Assembly (NCBI GenBank): GCA_038063455.1
Contig: JBBTVB010000002.1
Location: 65,296-129,295, forward strand
DNA length: 64,000 bases
Direction of reading: 5' to 3'
Source: Patescibacteria group bacterium
GTDB lineage: Bacteria; Patescibacteriota; Patescibacteriia; PEXW01
Made by a program: the position numbers and the translations under genes. Positions 6,542 to 61,196 of the stretch are shown here, in pieces; position 1 is the stretch's first letter, and the number at the start of each line of letters is the position of its first letter. Below the pieces are notes generated by a model, which saw only the letters and a list, made by a program, of their open reading frames with translations, was not told the origin of the DNA and did no database searches.

Positions 6542-6642
6542 GATTTTGGAAGAGTTATAAGGATAAAGGAATGGAAGTAAGTAAGGTCAGAAGGTATGGA
6601 AGGAGGTGGGAATGCATCTTACTAGCATCCATCCCCATTACC

Positions 6643-7632
6643 TTATGACTTTACCACCTGCCAGACGTGTGCGCCAAAACCCCAGCGGAGCAACGCGTCG
6701 GCGTCGGCAAAACGGTCGTCCGACGTAGGCGACCCGAGCAACACGAGCAGGAGCTCGTGACCATCGACCTGCGCTTGCACCGCTAGGTTGTACCCGGCCT
6801 CATCGAGAAAACCGGTTTTTGCTGCAACAATGGTGTACCCCGAATCGTGCACGAGTTCGCTCGTGGTCTGCACCACAAAACTGCGGCTGCCAGTGCGTAC
6901 TCGATAACTCGTCTGGCCAGCAAATTCTCGAAGCGTCGGGTTGCTAAACGCAGTATGGGCCAGCACCGCAACATCCTGCGCCGAACCAACATTTCCCGCT
7001 GCTAGCCCAGAGCCCTCTACCACCTGCACAGTACGGGCGCCTTGGGCCACAGCAAACTGCTGTAACCGGCCGGCAAACAAACCTGCGGTCCGGGCCAACG
7101 CCAGCACCGCATTATTCGCGCTGCCAATAATACTGGCGGCGAGCAAGTCTTTGTAGGTCACCCGTTCTCCTACACGCACGTCCAGCTTGCTCACCCCAGT
7201 GCCGGGTTCCACCACGTTGGTAATGTCATTGGTATGGAAGTCAGCAGGAATAGTGTACGCGGCCTCGAGCCGTGGTGCCGTTGCCAGGTACGCGCTGGTG
7301 GTTATGAGTTTGGTAAGGCTTGCCAGTGGGCGCACGGCAGTACGGTTGCGTTCCCACACAATTGTTCCGGTTTCGACATCGAGCAAAATGCCAGCCGGGG
7401 CAGTAATCGTCGGGCTGGCCGCCGAGCCAGAGAGCCGCACGGGTGCCACCCACTGTTCGGCAAACGCACCCGCAACTGCTGGCTGGCTGCTCTGCAGTTG
7501 TGGGTAGGCAATAAAAACGTAACTCATAACCATACACGCCGACACCATGCCACCAACCATAAAGGTAGCAAGCGTAAGCAACACGTGGTTGCGTCTAGAC
7601 AGCGGGGAGATTTTCTTCTTGTGGGTTGGCAT
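6643..7632 (-). CDS. D-alanyl-D-alanine carboxypeptidase (serine peptidase S11, PBP5/6-like)
   Basis: N-terminal TM anchor; SLTK (SxxK), SAN (SxN) and KTG motifs. Confidence 0.85.
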   Translation of the reverse strand: MPTHKKKISPLSRRNHVLLTLATFMVGGMVSACMVMSYVFIAYPQLQSSQPAVAGAFAEQWVAPVRLSGSAASPTITAPAGILLDVETGTIVWERNRTAVRPLASLTKLITTSAYLATAPRLEAAYTIPADFHTNDITNVVEPGTGVSKLDVRVGERVTYKDLLAASIIGSANNAVLALARTAGLFAGRLQQFAVAQGARTVQVVEGSGLAAGNVGSAQDVAVLAHTAFSNPTLREFAGQTSYRVRTGSRSFVVQTTSELVHDSGYTIVAAKTGFLDEAGYNLAVQAQVDGHELLLVLLGSPTSDDRFADADALLRWGFGAHVWQVVKS

Positions 7633-13809: not shown

Positions 13810-16479
13810 TTACGGCGTTACGTGCACCGGCTCCCGACGGCGGAACCAGAGCTTGCACAGCTCGACGACGCCCACAATTCCGAACCCGACCAAGACGATG
13901 AAGAGCCAATCGCTGGCACTCAAAGCCACCGTGCCGAAAATCCGCTGGCCAAACTCCGTGTGCACGGCGGCAATTTGCAAAAGAAGCGCCAAGGTTACGG
14001 ACCCAACCAATGTTGGGTTGGCCCACGGCCCAATGGAGGTGAGCGGCTGCCGCAGCGTGCGGATGGAAAAAACGTACATGAGTGAAGTAACGGCAATAGT
14101 GCAGAATGCCAAGGTACGCGCGTAGGCCAATTGCTCGCCTTCCAGCCACCCCAGACCGAACATGGCGAGGGCGATCAGGCCGACAATGAGGCTCAAGGTA
14201 ACAGTCATGAACCGTGTAAACGGCCCGACCAGCGGCCGCTTCGGGCTCATGGGCGGTTCATTTAAAATGCCGGGGTCGGCGGGTTCGCGCGTGAGCGCAA
14301 TAGTCGGCAGCGTGTCTGTAACCAAGTTGATCCACAAAATTTGTGCAGCCGTGAGCGGCAGCGGCCAGCCGAGTAGCAACCCGCCGACGATGAGCACGAG
14401 TTCGGCAAAACTGCCGGCCAGCAGGAACAAAATAACCCGCTTGATGTTGCGGAAAATCACCCGGCCCTCAAACACGGCCTGGGCAATGGTAGTTAAGCTA
14501 TTGTCGAGTAAAACGAGGTCGGACGCTTCCTTGGCCACGTCCGTGCCAGAGCCGAGGGCGATGCCGACATCGGCAGACTTGAGTGCCGGTGCATCGTTCA
14601 CACCGTCCCCCGTCATGGCCACCACTTCGCCGCGGGCTTGCCAGGCGTCAATGATGCGAAGTTTATCTTTCGGGCTCACGCGCGCGAATACGCGCACTAG
14701 GGCCACGCGTTCTTGCAACGCGTTTGCATCCAGCGCTTCTAGGTCGCGACCATCCATGACTTCGTCTTCCTGCGTGGTTAACCCCAGACCAGCAGCTATG
14801 GTACGTGCCGTGGCAATATTGTCACCGGTAAGCATTACTACTCGAATACCAGCACGATGCAGGGTAGCAATCGTTTCTGGCGCGTCGGCCCGCAGCGGGT
14901 CTTGAATCCCGACCACGCCGACCAGGACTAGGCCTTGTAAAGCGTCGGCTTCGGTCAACGGCAAAACCGGCGCGTGTTGCATGCGACGCTGGCCAATGGC
15001 AAGCGCGCGCAACCCCTGGCTGCTCATGTCCCGCACGCGGGCTTCAAACGCTGCGCGCCGTTCGGGCGTGAACGGCTGAGGCTTGCCGTCTTCTTCAATG
15101 GCCACCGCATGGGCCAGCAGCACTTCGGGTGCGCCTTTCACAAAAATAGCGTGGCCGTCGGCTTTGTGCTCGCAGGCCACGGCCATGTAGCGGCGGCTGG
15201 AATCAAACGGAATTTCGCCAATGCGGGTGTACTGGTTGCGGAGAGTCGGCAAGGCAAAACCTACTTCGGCTGCCGCGCGGACTAAAGCGCGTTCCGTAAG
15301 GTTGCCACGGATCTCCCACTCTTCCAGCGGGCTGTCAGGATTCGTAATTTCGGCATCCGAAGCCAGGGCGCCAATTTTCAGGACGAGTAATGCGCTTGGG
15401 TCCGGCTCCCCTGGATCGCGATGGGGGTGGTGGACGTCGCGGTCGTGCGTGAGAATTTTTACCACGCGCATGTAACCTTCGGTGACGGTGCCGGTCTTAT
15501 CCGTAGCAATGACAGTGACAGAACCTAAGGCTTCCGCCGCCAATAGTGACCGGGCCAAGGCGCGGATTTTGAGCATGTGCTGCATGCCAATAGCCAGAAT
15601 CACCGTAACCACCACGGCGAGGCCTTCGGGAATCGCAGCGACGGCAATGGCTACCGCAGTTGCGAACATTTGCTCGGCATCGTACAGGCGGAATATGCCG
15701 AATAAAAACACGAGGAGCGCAACCGTGAGCACAATAACCGTAAGCTGCCAGCTCAGTTTAATGAGTCGGCGCTGGAGCGGAGTCTTTTCTGTAATCGTGA
15801 GTTGCAGCAACTCTGCCACCTTGCCGAGCTCGGCGTGCATGCCCGTTGCCGTCACCACTGCAAACCCACGGCCGGCGGTTACCACGGTACCAGCAAAAAC
15901 CATATTGAGTTGTTCAGGAATGGTCACTGCTTCGGGCATGGCTTCGATTTGCTTGTTCACTGGTGCCGACTCACCCGTGAGCGTTGCTTCGTTAAGCTCG
16001 AGCGCGTGCTCTTCAATAAGCCGGGCGTCGGCCGCCACCTTCTGGCCGGCATGCAAAATGAGAATGTCGCCTGGCACCACCTCCGTGGATGGAATGTCGC
16101 GCTCGCGCCCATCGCGCAAAATTGTGGCCGTAAACGCCGCGACCTTTTGCAAAGCGGCCAAGGCCCGCTCGGCCCGGTTCTCTTGGAAAAACCCGACAAT
16201 AACGTTAAGGGCAATAGCGGCCAAAATAACACTGCCGTCCAAATGGTCGCCCAAGGCAAAACTCACGGCCGCAGCAATGAGCAGGATAATGACGAGGCTG
16301 CTTTCAAACTGTCGAGCGAGCGTCCGTAACGAATTCACCGCCTCGCGGTTGGGCAGTTCGTTGCGGCCATGTTGCTGCAAGCGGTGGTCGGCTTCCAACT
16401 GCGTCAAACCCCGCGTCGTGGCATCAACGTGGTGAAGAACGCTTTCAATATCTTGAGTTGCCGGTCGCACGGTAGGCAT
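13810..16479 (-). CDS. P-type cation-transporting ATPase, type II (Ca2+/SERCA-PMCA-like)
   Basis: TGES, PEGL, DKTGTVT, TGDN and [11 protein letters not shown] motifs; about 10 TM helices. Confidence 0.95.
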
Positions 16480-41789: not shown

Positions 41790-41818
41790 AGCGTACCATG
41801 CTCCCCCGTCCACGTCAA
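41790..41818 (-). promoter_or_regulatory. candidate sigma70-like promoter of the str operon (TTGACG-N17-TACGCT)
   Basis: hexamers and 17-nt spacing read on the minus strand, about 85 nt upstream of rpsL. Confidence 0.4.
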
Positions 41819-41852
41819 CCCCGCACCACCTTTTCAAAAAGGTGGTGCGGGG
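41819..41852. repeat. palindromic hairpin CCCCGCACCACCTTTT-CA-AAAAGGTGGTGCGGGG
   Basis: perfect 16-nt arms; directly downstream of the M50 protease stop; family member. Confidence 0.9.
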
Positions 41853-41863
41853 TCAAGGCTGGG

Positions 41864-42502: not shown

Positions 42503-42540
42503 GCCCAGCACCACTTTTTGAAAATAAAGTGGTGCTGGGC
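42503..42540. repeat. palindromic hairpin GCCCAGCACCACTT-N10-AAGTGGTGCTGGGC
   Basis: perfect 14-bp stem; 11 nt (CCCAGCACCAC) identical to the GIY-YIG inverted repeat. Confidence 0.9.
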
Positions 42541-47336: not shown

Positions 47337-47388
47337 ACTTTGTGTGTCTGGGTCGGGGTGTGGCGCAGTTGGTAGCGCGCTTGCATGG

Positions 47389-47420
47389 CCCCGCACCATT
47401 CGCTCCGCTTAGGTGCGGGG
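47389..47420. repeat. hairpin H1 CCCCGCACC-N14-GGTGCGGGG inside the anticodon loop of the outer tRNA-Pro copy
   Basis: perfect 9-bp stem; arms identical to H2 and to the first 9 nt of the 41819 hairpin. Confidence 0.9.
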
Positions 47421-47450
47421 TATAGGTGCAAGATTCTCATCTCGCTGGGT

Positions 47451-47523
47451 CGGGGTATAGCGCAGTTGGTAGCGCGCTTGCATGGGGTGCAAGAGGCCGC
47501 CGGTTCAAGTCCGGCTACCCCGA
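47451..47523 (+). tRNA. tRNA-Pro (anticodon GGG); CCA not encoded (ACCC)
   Basis: manual cloverleaf: CGGGGTA/TACCCCG, GCGC-AGTTGGTA-GCGC, CTTGC-ATGGGGT-GCAAG, GCCGG-TTCAAGT-CCGGC; embedded in an 18-bp leader/trailer helix (47440-47457 with 47516-47533). Confidence 0.9.
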
Positions 47524-47550
47524 CCCAGCGAGAGGCAGTGTTCAAGCCTG

Positions 47551-47582
47551 CCCCGCACCCGAGCGTAGTGAGTGGTGCGGGG
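47551..47582. repeat. hairpin H2 CCCCGCACC-N14-GGTGCGGGG between the T-arm and 3' acceptor strand of the outer copy
   Basis: perfect 9-bp stem; its loop is 9/14 identical to the reverse complement of the H1 loop. Confidence 0.9.
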
Positions 47583-47679
47583 GTCCCGCCACCCCGACCC
47601 AGACATGGAAGGCAATGCCAAAAAAATTACACGACTGCTTGTCGCTTACAGGATAAATACTCTACAGTAGGAACAGCCT

Positions 47680-57962: not shown

Positions 57963-58911
57963 CTAGATCTTGTGTTATAACCCCGTCCTTGGTCACGCGC
58001 ACCACGCGGCAATCTTGATTTGGGCGGGTAACCAGACCAAGCATGAAGCGGGCTTCTTTCCAGGGAACATCGGCGCCCAGCCCACCAACCGCAGTGAAAG
58101 GCGTGTGCGTGCTGACGTTGTCCGAGATAACAATGGAGCGACCATCAGGCGTAGGGAAGTGCACCGCAACTTGCAGCGGATAATTTGGATCAACACCACC
58201 GATCGGGCTTGGGGCGGGCTCAGGAGATATTCCCTTCCACGGTGCACCGCCTACGTTGCAACTCACCTTTCCACCCGTGGTGTCTTGCAAGCTCAAGTCA
58301 ACGAGCGTGACTTTTGGGTCGAACGTAAACGTTTCTGCTATTGTATCACCTTTATGGCGTCCACCGCTGCCGTAGCCGTCACTGCTAAAAATATGATCCA
58401 TGGTGGTGTCCACGCCCGCAAACCCATTGTCTTGAGGCATCGGCCAATTTTCAGACTCCAGCCAATTAAACGGGAAGCAATCCCCCTTGCACTGCACGCG
58501 GTCGGCAAACAGGTAGTACTGGCTGCGGTTGGGCCAATGGTTATTTTCAAATGTCGCCCCCGTGCTGCAGCTGGCAAATAGCCCAAAGCCGCCGCTCGGA
58601 GTGCTTACCGTACACGTCGACCCCGGCGTAATTGCTGCACACTCGGCATTACTCGAGCACTTTGTATCGTCATTGGTAAGCGTGCAATACCCAGCAACCG
58701 CGCCGCCTGCGGTATTCTCTTGCGCAAGACGTAAGCGGGACATCAGCAGCGTGGCTTCACGAGAAAGGACGCTGTCATCATTACTGCGCCGGTAGTTAGC
58801 CAGGATAAGCCCGAGCAATGCAATAAAAATCCCAGCCGAAACAAGAACTTCAAGCAACGAGAAGCCCTGCGGAGGTTTTTTCATTTGCCTAGTCAAAGAT
58901 GCAGTCGGCAT
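57943..58911 (-). CDS. FimT/FimU (GspH)-like minor pilin, Cys-rich (322 aa)
   Basis: PQG|FSLLEVLVSAGIF; LLMSRLRLAQE; paralogue of the next gene. Confidence 0.75.
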   Translation of the reverse strand: MPTASLTRQMKKPPQGFSLLEVLVSAGIFIALLGLILANYRRSNDDSVLSREATLLMSRLRLAQENTAGGAVAGYCTLTNDDTKCSSNAECAAITPGSTCTVSTPSGGFGLFASCSTGATFENNHWPNRSQYYLFADRVQCKGDCFPFNWLESENWPMPQDNGFAGVDTTMDHIFSSDGYGSGGRHKGDTIAETFTFDPKVTLVDLSLQDTTGGKVSCNVGGAPWKGISPEPAPSPIGGVDPNYPLQVAVHFPTPDGRSIVISDNVSTHTPFTAVGGLGADVPWKEARFMLGLVTRPNQDCRVVRVTKDGVITQDLDADCQF

Positions 58912-60367
58912 CGGTCCGTTGAGAAACCACGCCAGCGCGGGTCATGGTCACGACGTGGCAATCGCTATTTGGACGTTTGACGAGCCCGAGCATTACATCG
59001 GCACTCACCCAGGCATTATTTGGATCCGGATCCGAACCAGCACCAGGTGGATTAATAGCAATATTATCGGTGAGCATCACGCTCCGTCCGTCGGGTGGTA
59101 TAAAACGAATTGCGACTTGCAACGGATAGTTATTTGGGACAAGTGAATTGCCAGCGGTACTGACCGTTTTGCCACGCCATGGAGTACCACCGCCGGGATT
59201 ATCGCCTGATGTACATCGAAAAATTTTACCTGTTCCTGTAGCCCCAGGCACTGCATTTTGCGAAACCAGCTGCAAATCTTTTACCACAACTTTAGGGTCA
59301 AGTACGTACCGTTCTTGTGCTGTATCCCCTTTTTGGCCTTTGGACCCGCTCGGTGCGCCCCACAAGAATGTAAAGGCACTTACAATTCCATCTGACCCAA
59401 TTGCGGTGTCATCAAATGCGCCAAGTGCGGCCGTTTGCCGAGGCGGAAAGCACAATGTCGGCGCGCTTGCACTGGCGGATCCACAGGTGCGACGTTCTGC
59501 AAACAGTCCATACATTGACGCTCCATTTGTGAGAAATGGATATTCGGTTTCATCATATCCACCAGGCTTGGTATACCCTCCGGGGCATGCAAGCGAAATA
59601 ACAAAACCACCAGTCGGCGTTTCATTGCCAGTTGGGCATACCCCATTCAAGCCGGTCCCACCTGGGCAGCAATTTCTTGCAATATTATTGTTCGGATCAC
59701 AAGAGTATCTGCACGTACCGCCATTTGCACAGTCGCCATCAACTGAACATTGCCGATACGGATCATTGCTGCATACTAATGATGTTGTGGCATTAACGCA
59801 GCTATTTCCTGGGCCACATTCGGTTCCAAGTGGGCACGCTTTGAGTAGATCATTGCTGCAAACTCTGGGGCCATTCCCTGTACAACTTGTGCCCGTGAAA
59901 TGATAGCAATACCCAAACGTCTTGCCCGAATTTGCTTCTTCTTGCGCAAAGCGGATTCGCGACATGAGCAAACTTGTCTCTTTGTTGAGCGCGCTATCAT
60001 CACCGCCGCGGTAGTAATTTGCCAACACAAAGGCGAGTAGGCCAACCGAAATACCTACGGCAATGATAACCTCTATGAGTGTAAACCCAGCACCACCTTG
60101 CTTATTACTCTTCTTTGATGAAGACAACGTGAGTCGTTTTTTCAACTCACGTAAAGCATTGCCATTGTGTTTAAGATTATGCTCACGCATACGTGCTAAG
60201 GATTCCTCATGAAATGCCTCGTAATACTGCAATTGCCATGGTCTGTAACGTTTAGTTGAAAAACTTTTGCCGTCGTTGTGCTCTTTAACCCTACGCTTGA
60301 GGTCCTTAGTCGAGCCTATGTATGATTCATTACTACTAAGACTTCTTAAATAATACACGTAGTACAT
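58889..60367 (-). CDS. continuous ORF: GIY-YIG nuclease domain read through into a FimT/FimU-like, Cys-rich minor pilin
   Basis: from ATG 60367 there is no stop until 58889; GIY-YIG (YVY...YIG...R...E) then KQGGAG|FTLIEVIIAVG; the pilin part could also start at TTG 60127 (leader MSSSKKSNKQGGAG). Confidence 0.7.
   Translation of the reverse strand: MYYVYYLRSLSSNESYIGSTKDLKRRVKEHNDGKSFSTKRYRPWQLQYYEAFHEESLARMREHNLKHNGNALRELKKRLTLSSSKKSNKQGGAGFTLIEVIIAVGISVGLLAFVLANYYRGGDDSALNKETSLLMSRIRFAQEEANSGKTFGYCYHFTGTSCTGNGPRVCSNDLLKACPLGTECGPGNSCVNATTSLVCSNDPYRQCSVDGDCANGGTCRYSCDPNNNIARNCCPGGTGLNGVCPTGNETPTGGFVISLACPGGYTKPGGYDETEYPFLTNGASMYGLFAERRTCGSASASAPTLCFPPRQTAALGAFDDTAIGSDGIVSAFTFLWGAPSGSKGQKGDTAQERYVLDPKVVVKDLQLVSQNAVPGATGTGKIFRCTSGDNPGGGTPWRGKTVSTAGNSLVPNNYPLQVAIRFIPPDGRSVMLTDNIAINPPGAGSDPDPNNAWVSADVMLGLVKRPNSDCHVVTMTRAGVVSQRTDADCIFD
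60085..60101. repeat. inverted repeat arm ACCCAGCACCACCTTGC (encodes the prepilin leader end QGGAG|F on the minus strand)
   Basis: perfect reverse complement of 60368..60384. Confidence 0.95.
60131..60367 (-). other. GIY-YIG (COG2827/YhbQ-like URI) nuclease module
   Basis: MYYVYYLRSLSSNESYIGSTKDLKRRVKEHNDGKSFSTKRYRPWQLQYYEAFHEESLARMREHNLK matches the small stand-alone GIY-YIG family pattern. Confidence 0.85.
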
Positions 60368-60384
60368 GCAAGGTGGTGCTGGGT
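60368..60384. repeat. inverted repeat arm GCAAGGTGGTGCTGGGT
   Basis: perfect reverse complement of 60085..60101; lies between the pilD stop and the GIY-YIG ATG. Confidence 0.95.
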
Positions 60385-60395
60385 GAAGCCTTTTT

Positions 60396-61196
60396 TCATA
60401 GTCCAATAAGCTGTTTATACCAGTCTACCACGCTGGGCCCAAAAATGAACGCCAAAATGCCGGCTGCCCCAAGGAACACGCCAAATGGTAGCTGACTCTT
60501 GAGCTTGACCTTCCCGCGCACTAGCAAGGTTGCCGCCCATACGCTGCCGCTGAGATACGAGGCAAAAAGCGCCAAGATGACCCCCGGGAAACCCAGATAG
60601 GCACCCAGCACAGCGCCAATGCGGATATCCCCGCTCCCCACCCACTTGCCGCGGGAAAAAAACCACTGCAGCCAAAACCAGGCCGCGCCAATGGCTATAG
60701 CTAGCAGCAGGCTAAGCAGTTGCGAATTTGCGTTTGACGATGCGCCCGTAAAGATACGAATAAGTTGTAGTGCAGTCAGCACGCCCAGGGTCGGCAGGCT
60801 AATGCTATCTGGCACAATTTTGTGGCGGCCGTCGATGAAGGCCAGTACCAGCAGGCTGCACGCACCAATGGCACCAATAAAAAAGTCCATATCTAGCCCG
60901 TGCTGCAGGTACAAGAGTACAAAAATAGCAGCGGTAAGCGTCTCAACAATAATGTACTGCGGGCTCAACGGTTTATGGCAGTACCGGCAGCGTCCCCGAA
61001 AAAAAAGGTAGCTAAAAATCGGCACGAGATCTAAAGGTTGTAACACTTTTTTACAGTGCATGCAGCGGGAGCGCTGCTTGGGCCCTAAAAACTTGCGACC
61101 TTTGGGCAACCGAAAAATGACAACATTTAAAAAGCTGCCGATGATGGCGCCGAGCAAGAAGAGGAAAATTGCGATGAATGGGTTTAAAAAATTCAT
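60396..61196 (-). CDS. pilD: prepilin peptidase / N-methyltransferase (A24 family)
   Basis: N-terminal CxxC...CxxC (CMHCKK...CRYCHK), multiple TM helices, DGR and GSGD aspartate motifs. Confidence 0.9.
   Translation of the reverse strand: MNFLNPFIAIFLFLLGAIIGSFLNVVIFRLPKGRKFLGPKQRSRCMHCKKVLQPLDLVPIFSYLFFRGRCRYCHKPLSPQYIIVETLTAAIFVLLYLQHGLDMDFFIGAIGACSLLVLAFIDGRHKIVPDSISLPTLGVLTALQLIRIFTGASSNANSQLLSLLLAIAIGAAWFWLQWFFSRGKWVGSGDIRIGAVLGAYLGFPGVILALFASYLSGSVWAATLLVRGKVKLKSQLPFGVFLGAAGILAFIFGPSVVDWYKQLIGL

Follow-up and report, generated by a model that had tools for sequence, protein, structure and literature searches.

The single-domain GIY-YIG nucleases of the Ssn family act on single-stranded DNA (ssDNA), and their genes are flanked by hairpin repeats that are also strewn through the genome, as described for SsnA of Neisseria meningitidis (Chenal et al. 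2025, PMC11893778). SsnA binds the hairpin in ssDNA and cuts just 5' of it, and its authors called the layout insertion-sequence-like (PMC11893778). In the candidate phyla radiation (CPR), ribosomal RNA (rRNA) genes carry non-intron insertions encoding GIY-YIG open reading frames (ORFs), which have been treated as sparse and 'outside the context of homing' (PMC11270868; non-intron GIY-YIG insertions in CPR rRNA genes are credited to Brown et al. 2015, as cited in PMC11270868). We analyzed a stretch of 64,000 nucleotides from a Patescibacteria group bacterium (GenBank assembly GCA_038063455.1, contig JBBTVB010000002.1, positions 65,296 to 129,295; hereafter the window), in which a GIY-YIG nuclease gene enclosed by an inverted repeat is fused in frame to the first pilin gene after pilD, the prepilin peptidase gene. 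We propose, with a probability of roughly 0.7, that this segment is a small mobile cassette with one GIY-YIG nuclease gene, living as a cleavable prepilin leader. In the full-text literature on GIY-YIG enzymes, pilins, homing endonucleases and Patescibacteria, we found no published description of nuclease-prepilin fusions, and insertion as a cleavable prepilin leader appears undescribed so far.

A nuclease gene at the Gly-Phe junction of a prepilin gene

In the window, the cassette interrupts the first pilin gene after pilD exactly where its Gly(-1) codon would meet the Phe(+1) codon. Just upstream of its left arm, on the minus strand, a relic start reads ATG AAA AAA GGC TTC = MKKG↓F (the arrow marks the peptidase cleavage site), followed by ACC CAG. 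The pilD stop TGA overlaps the relic ATG as ATGA, and the relic sequence across this overlap, ATGAAAAAAGGCTTC, matches the uninterrupted pilD-pilin junction of L002, a syntenic relative without the nuclease (L-numbers denote the 90 related loci that we fetched). At the same place L002 reads ..CTATGAAAAAAGGTTTTACTCTTATTGAA = MKKG↓FTLIET, with the start again overlapping the pilD stop (ATGA). When the 302 nt between TTCAC and TTTAC are removed from the window in silico, MKKG↓FTLIEV is restored. Taken together, the relic start, the intact site in L002 and the restoration by removal of 302 nt identify the segment as an insertion in a prepilin gene. Since the right arm encodes ...GGAG in the pilin frame, a new G↓FTLIE cleavage site is rebuilt at the far border. 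A relic leader, MKHRSGF, stands at the same place in a sister lineage, and relic M..GF starts lie upstream of the left arm also in L014, L015, L017a/b, L019, L021, L028 and L031. The features of the locus are the following:

60396-61196, minus strand: pilD, prepilin peptidase/N-methyltransferase (Pfam A24_N_bact E=9e-32, Peptidase_A24 E=7e-13)
60346-60399, minus strand: relic pilin start, a 17-codon ORF (MKKGFTQHHLACTTCII, then a stop) that runs through the left arm and overlaps with the nuclease start
60384-60387, minus strand: left 4-bp flank TTCA, made up of TTC, the relic Phe codon, and the A with which the following codon begins
60368-60383, minus strand: left terminal inverted repeat CCCAGCACCACCTTGC, abutting the nuclease ATG and covarying with the right arm across 14 loci
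60125-60367, minus strand: GIY-YIG nuclease core, 81 aa (Pfam PF01541), with all family-invariant residues present
60086-60124, minus strand: stop-free linker SSSKKSNKQGGAG
60086-60101, minus strand: right terminal inverted repeat GCAAGGTGGTGCTGGG, encoding (K)QGGAG, whose last residue is Gly(-1) of the rebuilt cleavage site
60085-60101: one arm of the repeat, ACCCAGCACCACCTTGC, with its exact complement at 60368-60384
60082-60085, minus strand: right 4-bp flank TTTA, spanning Phe(+1) and the first base of Thr(+2)
58889-60085, minus strand: mature minor pilin, 398 aa (FTLIEVIIAVG...) plus stop, with a GspH/FimT-like N-terminus and a weak NCBIfam GspH match
Empty target sequence: GGCTTCACACTCATAGAG

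An initial annotation of this locus had reported a perfect 17-bp inverted repeat bracketing 266 bp, a minus-strand ATG directly after the repeat that opens a GIY-YIG domain, a nuclease ORF running stop-free into a prepilin, and a pilin-proximal arm encoding the cleavage motif. We verified each of these observations. The arms are complementary at 17/17 positions with a spacing of 266 nt. The ATG at 60367 opens the PF01541 domain (E=3e-14, residues 1-71), and the fusion ORF of 492 aa (58889-60367) holds nuclease and pilin in one frame through ...KKSNKQGGAG↓FTLIEV, the right arm giving QGGAG including Gly(-1). The cassette is best described by 16-bp terminal inverted repeats, CCCAGCACCACCTTGC and GCAAGGTGGTGCTGGG, and a 4-bp flanking direct repeat TTCA/TTTA; related cassettes have TTTA/TTTA. 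It measures 300 bp and spans 60082-60387 including the flanking repeats; the 17th pair of the repeat is formed by the flanks themselves, one contributing its last base and the other its first. GC content is 0.40 over the segment, compared with 0.5-0.6 in its flanks. Such a repeat is unusual here: the 64-kb window has only seven with arms of 15 bp or more lying no further than 600 bp apart, three of them belonging to this arm sequence family. No other nuclease copy was found in the window by tblastn. PilD is encoded directly upstream of the nuclease, with 28 nt between pilD and the ATG at 60367. According to the minimum-energy fold predicted for the mRNA of the window, the arms pair with each other (z = -4.5).

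The rebuilt protein has the Gly(-1), Phe(+1), Glu(+5) and hydrophobic N-terminal helix of a type IV prepilin (..GGAG↓FTLIEVIIAVGISVGLLAFVLA). By contrast, the short basic leader of about 5-30 aa that is typical of type IV prepilins is replaced by a leader of 94 aa with a folded domain, whereas cassette-free homologous pilins have leaders of 4-31 aa (e.g. MRIRKG, MKKG and one of 31 aa).

Two further observations concern the L002 operon. The mature pilin of the window looks chimeric beside it (L002 7805-8860, 10001-11062), residues 1-30 matching the first L002 pilin after pilD (24/30) and the remainder the third gene (22/30 over residues 31-60). This pattern suggests recombination between paralogous pilin genes with loss of two genes, or else gene gain in L002. 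Two small ORFs of the DUF559/MTES_1575 type (Vsr-like endonuclease fold) bracket the cassette-less pilin operon of L002 at 6576-6995 and 15382-15717.

Conservation of the nuclease-prepilin fusion

The sister lineage (92% amino-acid identity, contigs from three sequencing runs) carries the same fusion in the same orientation with identical arms. Both halves of the fusion are under purifying selection, the ratio of nonsynonymous to synonymous divergence (omega, dN/dS) between the window and the sister lineage being 0.07 for the nuclease and 0.05 for the pilin. The identical 492-aa protein occurs on at least three contigs (NCBI, ENA, Logan). For 19 of the nuclease genes in the 90 loci, a pilin N-terminus is no more than 450 nt away; every one of the 19 is upstream of this pilin and co-directional with it, with no antiparallel case, and 17 share its frame. 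Of the GTDB species representatives, the three with the nearest homologues of the nuclease belong to Levyibacteriota, Magasanikbacteria and another Patescibacteria lineage, and in each of them the homologue is an in-frame prepilin fusion with the same arm motif.

We compared 16 complete or partial fusion ORFs, in frame and stop-free, in which the 'leader' takes up 88-187 aa and the mature part 135-583 aa. Their pilins are alike beyond residue 30 in only 6/120 pairs, while the nucleases are 54-78% identical in 120/120. An exhaustive HMMER search over 1.84 billion cluster representatives (50%-identity clusters) returned 5,941 homologues of the nuclease. Among the best 148 of these, 93 are at least 130 aa long, and 78 of those 93 have G↓F(T/S)xxE right after an N-terminal nuclease. 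Leaders in the cluster-representative fusions range from 71 to 178 aa, and residues -6 to -1 of the fusion proteins are a conserved (L/K)KSGAG. A word-indexed protein search gave mostly stand-alone 81-aa proteins, and the fusions surfaced only with HMMER. Overall, judged from these sequences, the fusion is the conserved state and not a broken gene.

Some loci are more elaborate. At L017 1284-2700, two consecutive pilin genes each have their own cassette, with different covarying arms (ACCCAGCACTATTTTCAGCT and ATCCAGCACTATTTTT). Nuclease-pilin linkers with tandem duplications, each including the left arm, are present at L022 2225-2560 (three 96-nt units), L006 3243-3325 and L020 1460-1680.

Covarying arms, ORF-less copies and flanking repeats

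In the arm alignment of 14 loci, 95.4% of cells were paired and 10/17 pairs had changed on both sides, a result reached by 0/500 shuffles; slid registers of the same alignment gave 40-57% paired. ORF-less hairpins of the arm family, 32-37 bp long, occur at five sites in the window:

1944-1988 with flanks (hairpin 1948-1984): TTGA, CCCAGCACCGCTTTGT, ggtac, GCAAAGTTGTGTTGGG, TTGA
41815-41856 with flanks (hairpin 41819-41852): TCAA, CCCCGCACCACCTTTT, ca, AAAAGGTGGTGCGGGG, TCAA
42500-42543 with flanks (hairpin 42504-42539): CTTG, CCCAGCACCACTTT, ttgaaaat, AAAGTGGTGCTGGG, CTTG
47389-47420: mini hairpin CCCCGCACC..GGTGCGGGG, within a degenerate tRNA-Pro copy
47551-47582: second family-type mini hairpin, within the same degenerate tRNA-Pro copy

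The first three (1948-1984, 41819-41852 and 42504-42539) are flanked by perfect 4-bp direct repeats, TTGA, TCAA and CTTG, respectively. Over all the DNA examined, such perfect flanks accompany 7/15 family-type solo tight hairpins and 0/61 other hairpins. The other two lie in a nested arrangement at 47345-47605, where a degenerate copy of tRNA-Pro(GGG) surrounds an intact gene for this tRNA (47450-47527); both mini hairpins interrupt the degenerate copy, the one at 47389-47420 in its anticodon loop.

We also considered the arms as an operator or promoter module, as -35-like hexamers seemed to adjoin the solo hairpins. A near-consensus sigma-70-type promoter (TTGACA, 17 nt, TATACT; 11/12) lies at 1985-2013, its -35 hexamer starting with the right TTGA flank of the first mini-copy. 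The scan was positive at this one of three solo copies and gave no match at the other two. The TTGA is better taken for a flanking repeat, and the module was rejected. Two identical 45-nt hairpin units at 2734-2778 and 2955-2999, 221 nt apart (CCCCACGAAGT, 23 nt, ACTTCGTGGGG), belong to another repeat family than the cassette arms.

Relatives of the cassette in other host genes

Stand-alone relatives of the nuclease are 81-90 aa long. Among the more distant ones (84-86 aa, 50-66% identical), 45/74 are enclosed by a perfect inverted repeat of 11 bp or more, with arms up to 24 bp, compared with at most 10 bp in shuffled controls, and these arms have a related core, CCCCCACACC or CCCCGCACC. When the flanks of 41 enclosed cassettes were compared with the arms anchored on CCC.../...GGG, the 4-bp flanks were identical at 4/4 positions in 16 and at 3/4 in nine (controls: 5.7% and 12%). 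Cassettes of the distant relatives interrupt structured-RNA genes, namely 16S rRNA (L036, L065, L075), RNase P RNA (L081) and tRNA (L026, L037), and in L045 they lie exactly at the ATG start codons of two genes, with TATGA duplicated. In L024 and L056, a pilin-type cassette (arms CCCAGCACCAC) interrupts RHS/YD-repeat genes at F-T or F-P codons; in these loci the nuclease ORF ends in a stop codon and the host ORF is cut in two.

Because these distant relatives share inverted repeats and 4-bp flanks in varied host genes, the pilin-associated clade is one branch within a wider family of small elements that have inverted ends and short repeats at their flanks. Such transposon-type ends, i.e. terminal inverted repeats plus a short target duplication, are present in the window as well, with its flank at 3/4. 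No transposase of a known class (DDE, HUH, serine or tyrosine) is encoded in the cassette, where the GIY-YIG gene is the only ORF. Synonymous divergence between the window and the sister lineage (L094 2960-3290) is 0.31 for the cassette, 0.91 for the pilin and 0.71 for pilD, and the shift falls at the cassette borders. This low value in the cassette suggests its later lateral spread or conversion. We also advance, tentatively and with somewhat less than even confidence, that the family may form a new class of mobile element, characterized by terminal inverted repeats, a 4-bp target duplication, a sole Ssn-like GIY-YIG gene and 30-40-bp ORF-less derivatives, one clade of which would have specialized on the prepilin Gly-Phe junction, where it would be harmless as the leader is removed by the host prepilin peptidase.

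Evaluation of the cassette and of other explanations

Several points weigh against a mobile cassette that lives as a cleavable leader. The flanking repeat of the window, TTCA/TTTA, is identical at only 3/4 positions. To our knowledge, known prepilin leaders reach at most about 30 aa, compared with the 94-aa folded leader here, and we know of no route by which a hydrolytic GIY-YIG enzyme would lead to terminal repeats and target duplications. In L014 and L028, the nuclease ORF terminates and the pilin has a start of its own. In the window, an in-frame TTG makes independent translation of the pilin possible. The low synonymous divergence of the cassette could instead reflect constraint on synonymous sites. 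Finally, the published SRM consensus HGTCWYN(0-2)YYVSBRHN(0-5)WNVSBRGN(0-2)RNCYNB had 0 matches in the window, where shuffles average 0.9.

The nuclease could also have been domesticated. As such, it would be co-expressed with the pilins and tethered at the inner membrane, for example to cut incoming hairpin-bearing ssDNA during pilus-dependent uptake, and would not be merely parasitic. By established pilin topology, a prepilin leader stands at the cytoplasmic face of the membrane, and both the strong purifying selection on the nuclease and the wide distribution of the fusion agree with domestication. SsnA, moreover, cleaves ssDNA that carries the hairpin and influences natural transformation in Neisseria (PMC11893778). 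However, the relic starts, the 4-bp flanking repeats and the low GC resemble selfish spread, as do the unrelated partner pilins and the insertions in RHS, rRNA, tRNA and rnpB genes, and the cassette is in only one of the many pilin genes of the window. We therefore regard domestication as unlikely.

Somewhat less likely still is an incidental fusion, with the pilin translated alone from an in-frame TTG or by reinitiation and the read-through product minor or non-functional. The candidate start is the Leu-81 codon TTG (60125-60127), which precedes the linker and would give (M)SSSKKSNKQGGAG↓F. L017b, L019 and L028 have an in-frame ATG or GTG before the end of the leader, and the nuclease stop of L014 and L028 points the same way. 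However, this TTG is TTA in the sister lineage, L005, L016, L021, L023 and L030 have no start codon between nuclease and cleavage site, and linkers of widely varying length are all in frame and stop-free.

The initial annotation had offered, as the first of two alternatives, an invertible DNA switch in which recombination between the 17-bp arms flips the 266 bp and exchanges the fused state for a short-leader pilin plus a stand-alone nuclease, the flipped state being the repaired one. The perfect inverted repeat has a size typical for invertons, and after the in-silico flip the pilin begins with an ATG, as MQGGAG↓F, and the nuclease ends in a stop. That a flip repairs both genes is correct as a statement about the in-silico sequence, but it loses its value as evidence for a switch, since the repair follows from the geometry of the junction. 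The nuclease frame leaves the right arm as ...GGG T/TT; after a flip, the last T of the arm is followed by RAA, the reverse complement of the relic Phe codon TTY, and T+RA is TGA or TAA whichever Phe codon is used. The flipped ATG, for its part, comes from the direct contact of the nuclease ATG with an arm whose last bases are GC (GCATGC). These flipped-state features are missing from most of the related loci: there, 16-41 nt separate the arm from the ATG, and the flipped ATG is absent. The flipped leader MQGGAG is also without the basic residues found in the leaders of the homologues.

In addition, a single orientation was observed in at least three contigs of this protein, three sister-lineage samples and 19/19 related loci, the fusion is conserved under purifying selection, and no recombinase is among the genes called within 10 kb on either side (Pfam). 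The flipped state was seen in no related genome, and the initial annotation itself had named the present orientation alone, with a fusion ORF conserved under purifying selection, as arguing against a switch. We consider a switch very improbable. Its second alternative, insertion of a selfish GIY-YIG cassette, is the one that we retain, on the basis of the relic start, the uninterrupted relative, the low GC, the terminal inverted repeats and the 4-bp flanks; the relic start and the conserved fusion had been overlooked. A chance repeat or an assembly artefact, for which nothing speaks except that the source is a metagenome-assembled genome, has a negligible probability, the same architecture with covarying arms being found in dozens of independent assemblies and the identical protein in NCBI, ENA and Logan records.

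Proposed mechanism and significance

If the segment is a mobile cassette, the nuclease and linker (94 aa) would form an oversized cytoplasmic leader. PilD requires Gly(-1) and tolerates variation in the leader. The peptidase encoded by the neighbouring pilD would remove the leader, giving a normal mature pilin and a free nuclease, and the insertion would thus be cheap for the host, much like an intein or intron. By analogy with SsnA, the nuclease may recognize the hairpin formed by both arms in ssDNA, and its cut would then adjoin the hairpin at the GG-TTYA junction, which is the insertion point. Cutting could drive spread to other pilin genes and to the alleles of relatives, and the short ORF-less hairpins elsewhere in the genome would derive from the same element. 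Through translational coupling to pilD, the relic ORF may open the stem that otherwise covers the nuclease start. We set aside a translational bypass from the relic UUC to UUU across the stem: the frame is kept across variable linkers, which argues for straightforward translation of the fusion rather than bypass.

The locus would be a testable example of a selfish gene that exploits the host signal peptidase, and not RNA or protein splicing, to spare the host gene. It would also provide a natural test of the leader length and folding accepted by prepilin peptidase. The annotation 'GIY-YIG nuclease family protein' conceals at least 78 clusters of nuclease-prepilin fusions in Patescibacteria. 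The locus and its relatives connect the Ssn hairpin nucleases with clear traces of insertion, namely relic starts, repeats at the flanks and copies without an ORF, and also with the unexplained GIY-YIG insertions in CPR rRNA genes. More generally, inverted repeats around an ORF beside a surface-structure gene need not mean a phase-variation switch.

Comparison with known systems

By the likeness drawn from its description in PMC11893778, the closest described system is Ssn/NTS. The nuclease core of the window (81 aa, PF01541 only, here fused to a pilin) resembles the single-domain GIY-YIG proteins of about 80-95 aa. An AF2 model of it (pLDDT 92) has a canonical GIY-YIG fold; Foldseek matched Slx1 (TM 0.70-0.75), UPF0213 BH0048 and the catalytic domain of I-TevI, with UPF0213 BH0048 and Slx1 as the best matches among solved structures. 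In both systems, inverted repeats able to form a hairpin bracket the gene, the same hairpin is dispersed in the genome (five copies in the window), and a conserved 5' flank stands beside the stem, GTCA or GTTYA here and CGTCA in NTS. By contrast, the arms here are half-sites 266 nt apart and not two complete hairpins, the stems are 15-24 bp instead of about 7-8 bp, 4-bp direct repeats flank the element, and the cassette is embedded in an ORF whose translation gives a fusion. Patescibacteria are the hosts here, and PMC11893778 mentions neither fusions, pilin genes nor Patescibacteria.

The insertions in CPR rRNA genes share the host group and ORF type with this family, which has relatives in 16S rRNA (L036, L065, L075), whereas PMC11270868 describes neither inverted repeats around them nor flanking repeats, and no insertions in pilin genes. 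Invertons, including gene-altering programmed inversions (PMC9881135), likewise have inverted repeats around a short segment by a surface-structure gene. Unlike them, the present locus has no invertase called within 10 kb, is seen in one orientation and holds a conserved ORF fused to its neighbour.

As in REP/RAYT and IS200/IS605 systems, a small nuclease-type gene lies between palindromic inverted repeats and many ORF-less copies are dispersed; action through ssDNA hairpins is proposed there and would apply here. The enzyme here is of the GIY-YIG type and not an HUH/Y1 transposase, so that no covalent strand-transfer intermediate can arise, and IS200/IS605 makes no target duplication. Rickettsia palindromic elements and Neisseria Correia elements are short repeats with inverted ends that lie within ORFs without destroying them. 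Unlike the cassette, they have no gene and no tie to one cleavage site of one protein family.

Homing endonuclease genes in group I introns and inteins, and free-standing GIY-YIG genes such as those for I-TevI and the T4 Seg proteins, are similar in that a selfish nuclease occupies a conserved site of a host gene whose product is still made, and inteins also in their in-frame translation and removal from the protein. The homing-type trait of the same element at the same conserved site in different hosts is found here at the G↓F-T codons of many unrelated pilin genes. No Rfam family above threshold marked an intron RNA in 59700-60700, and Pfam and NCBIfam scans found no intein domain. The nuclease here is without a separate DNA-binding domain, and the cassette has the terminal inverted repeats and short flanking repeats that homing elements lack. 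Its removal would use the host signal peptidase at its normal site and, if true, would add to introns and inteins a third way for a selfish nuclease gene to persist within an essential gene.

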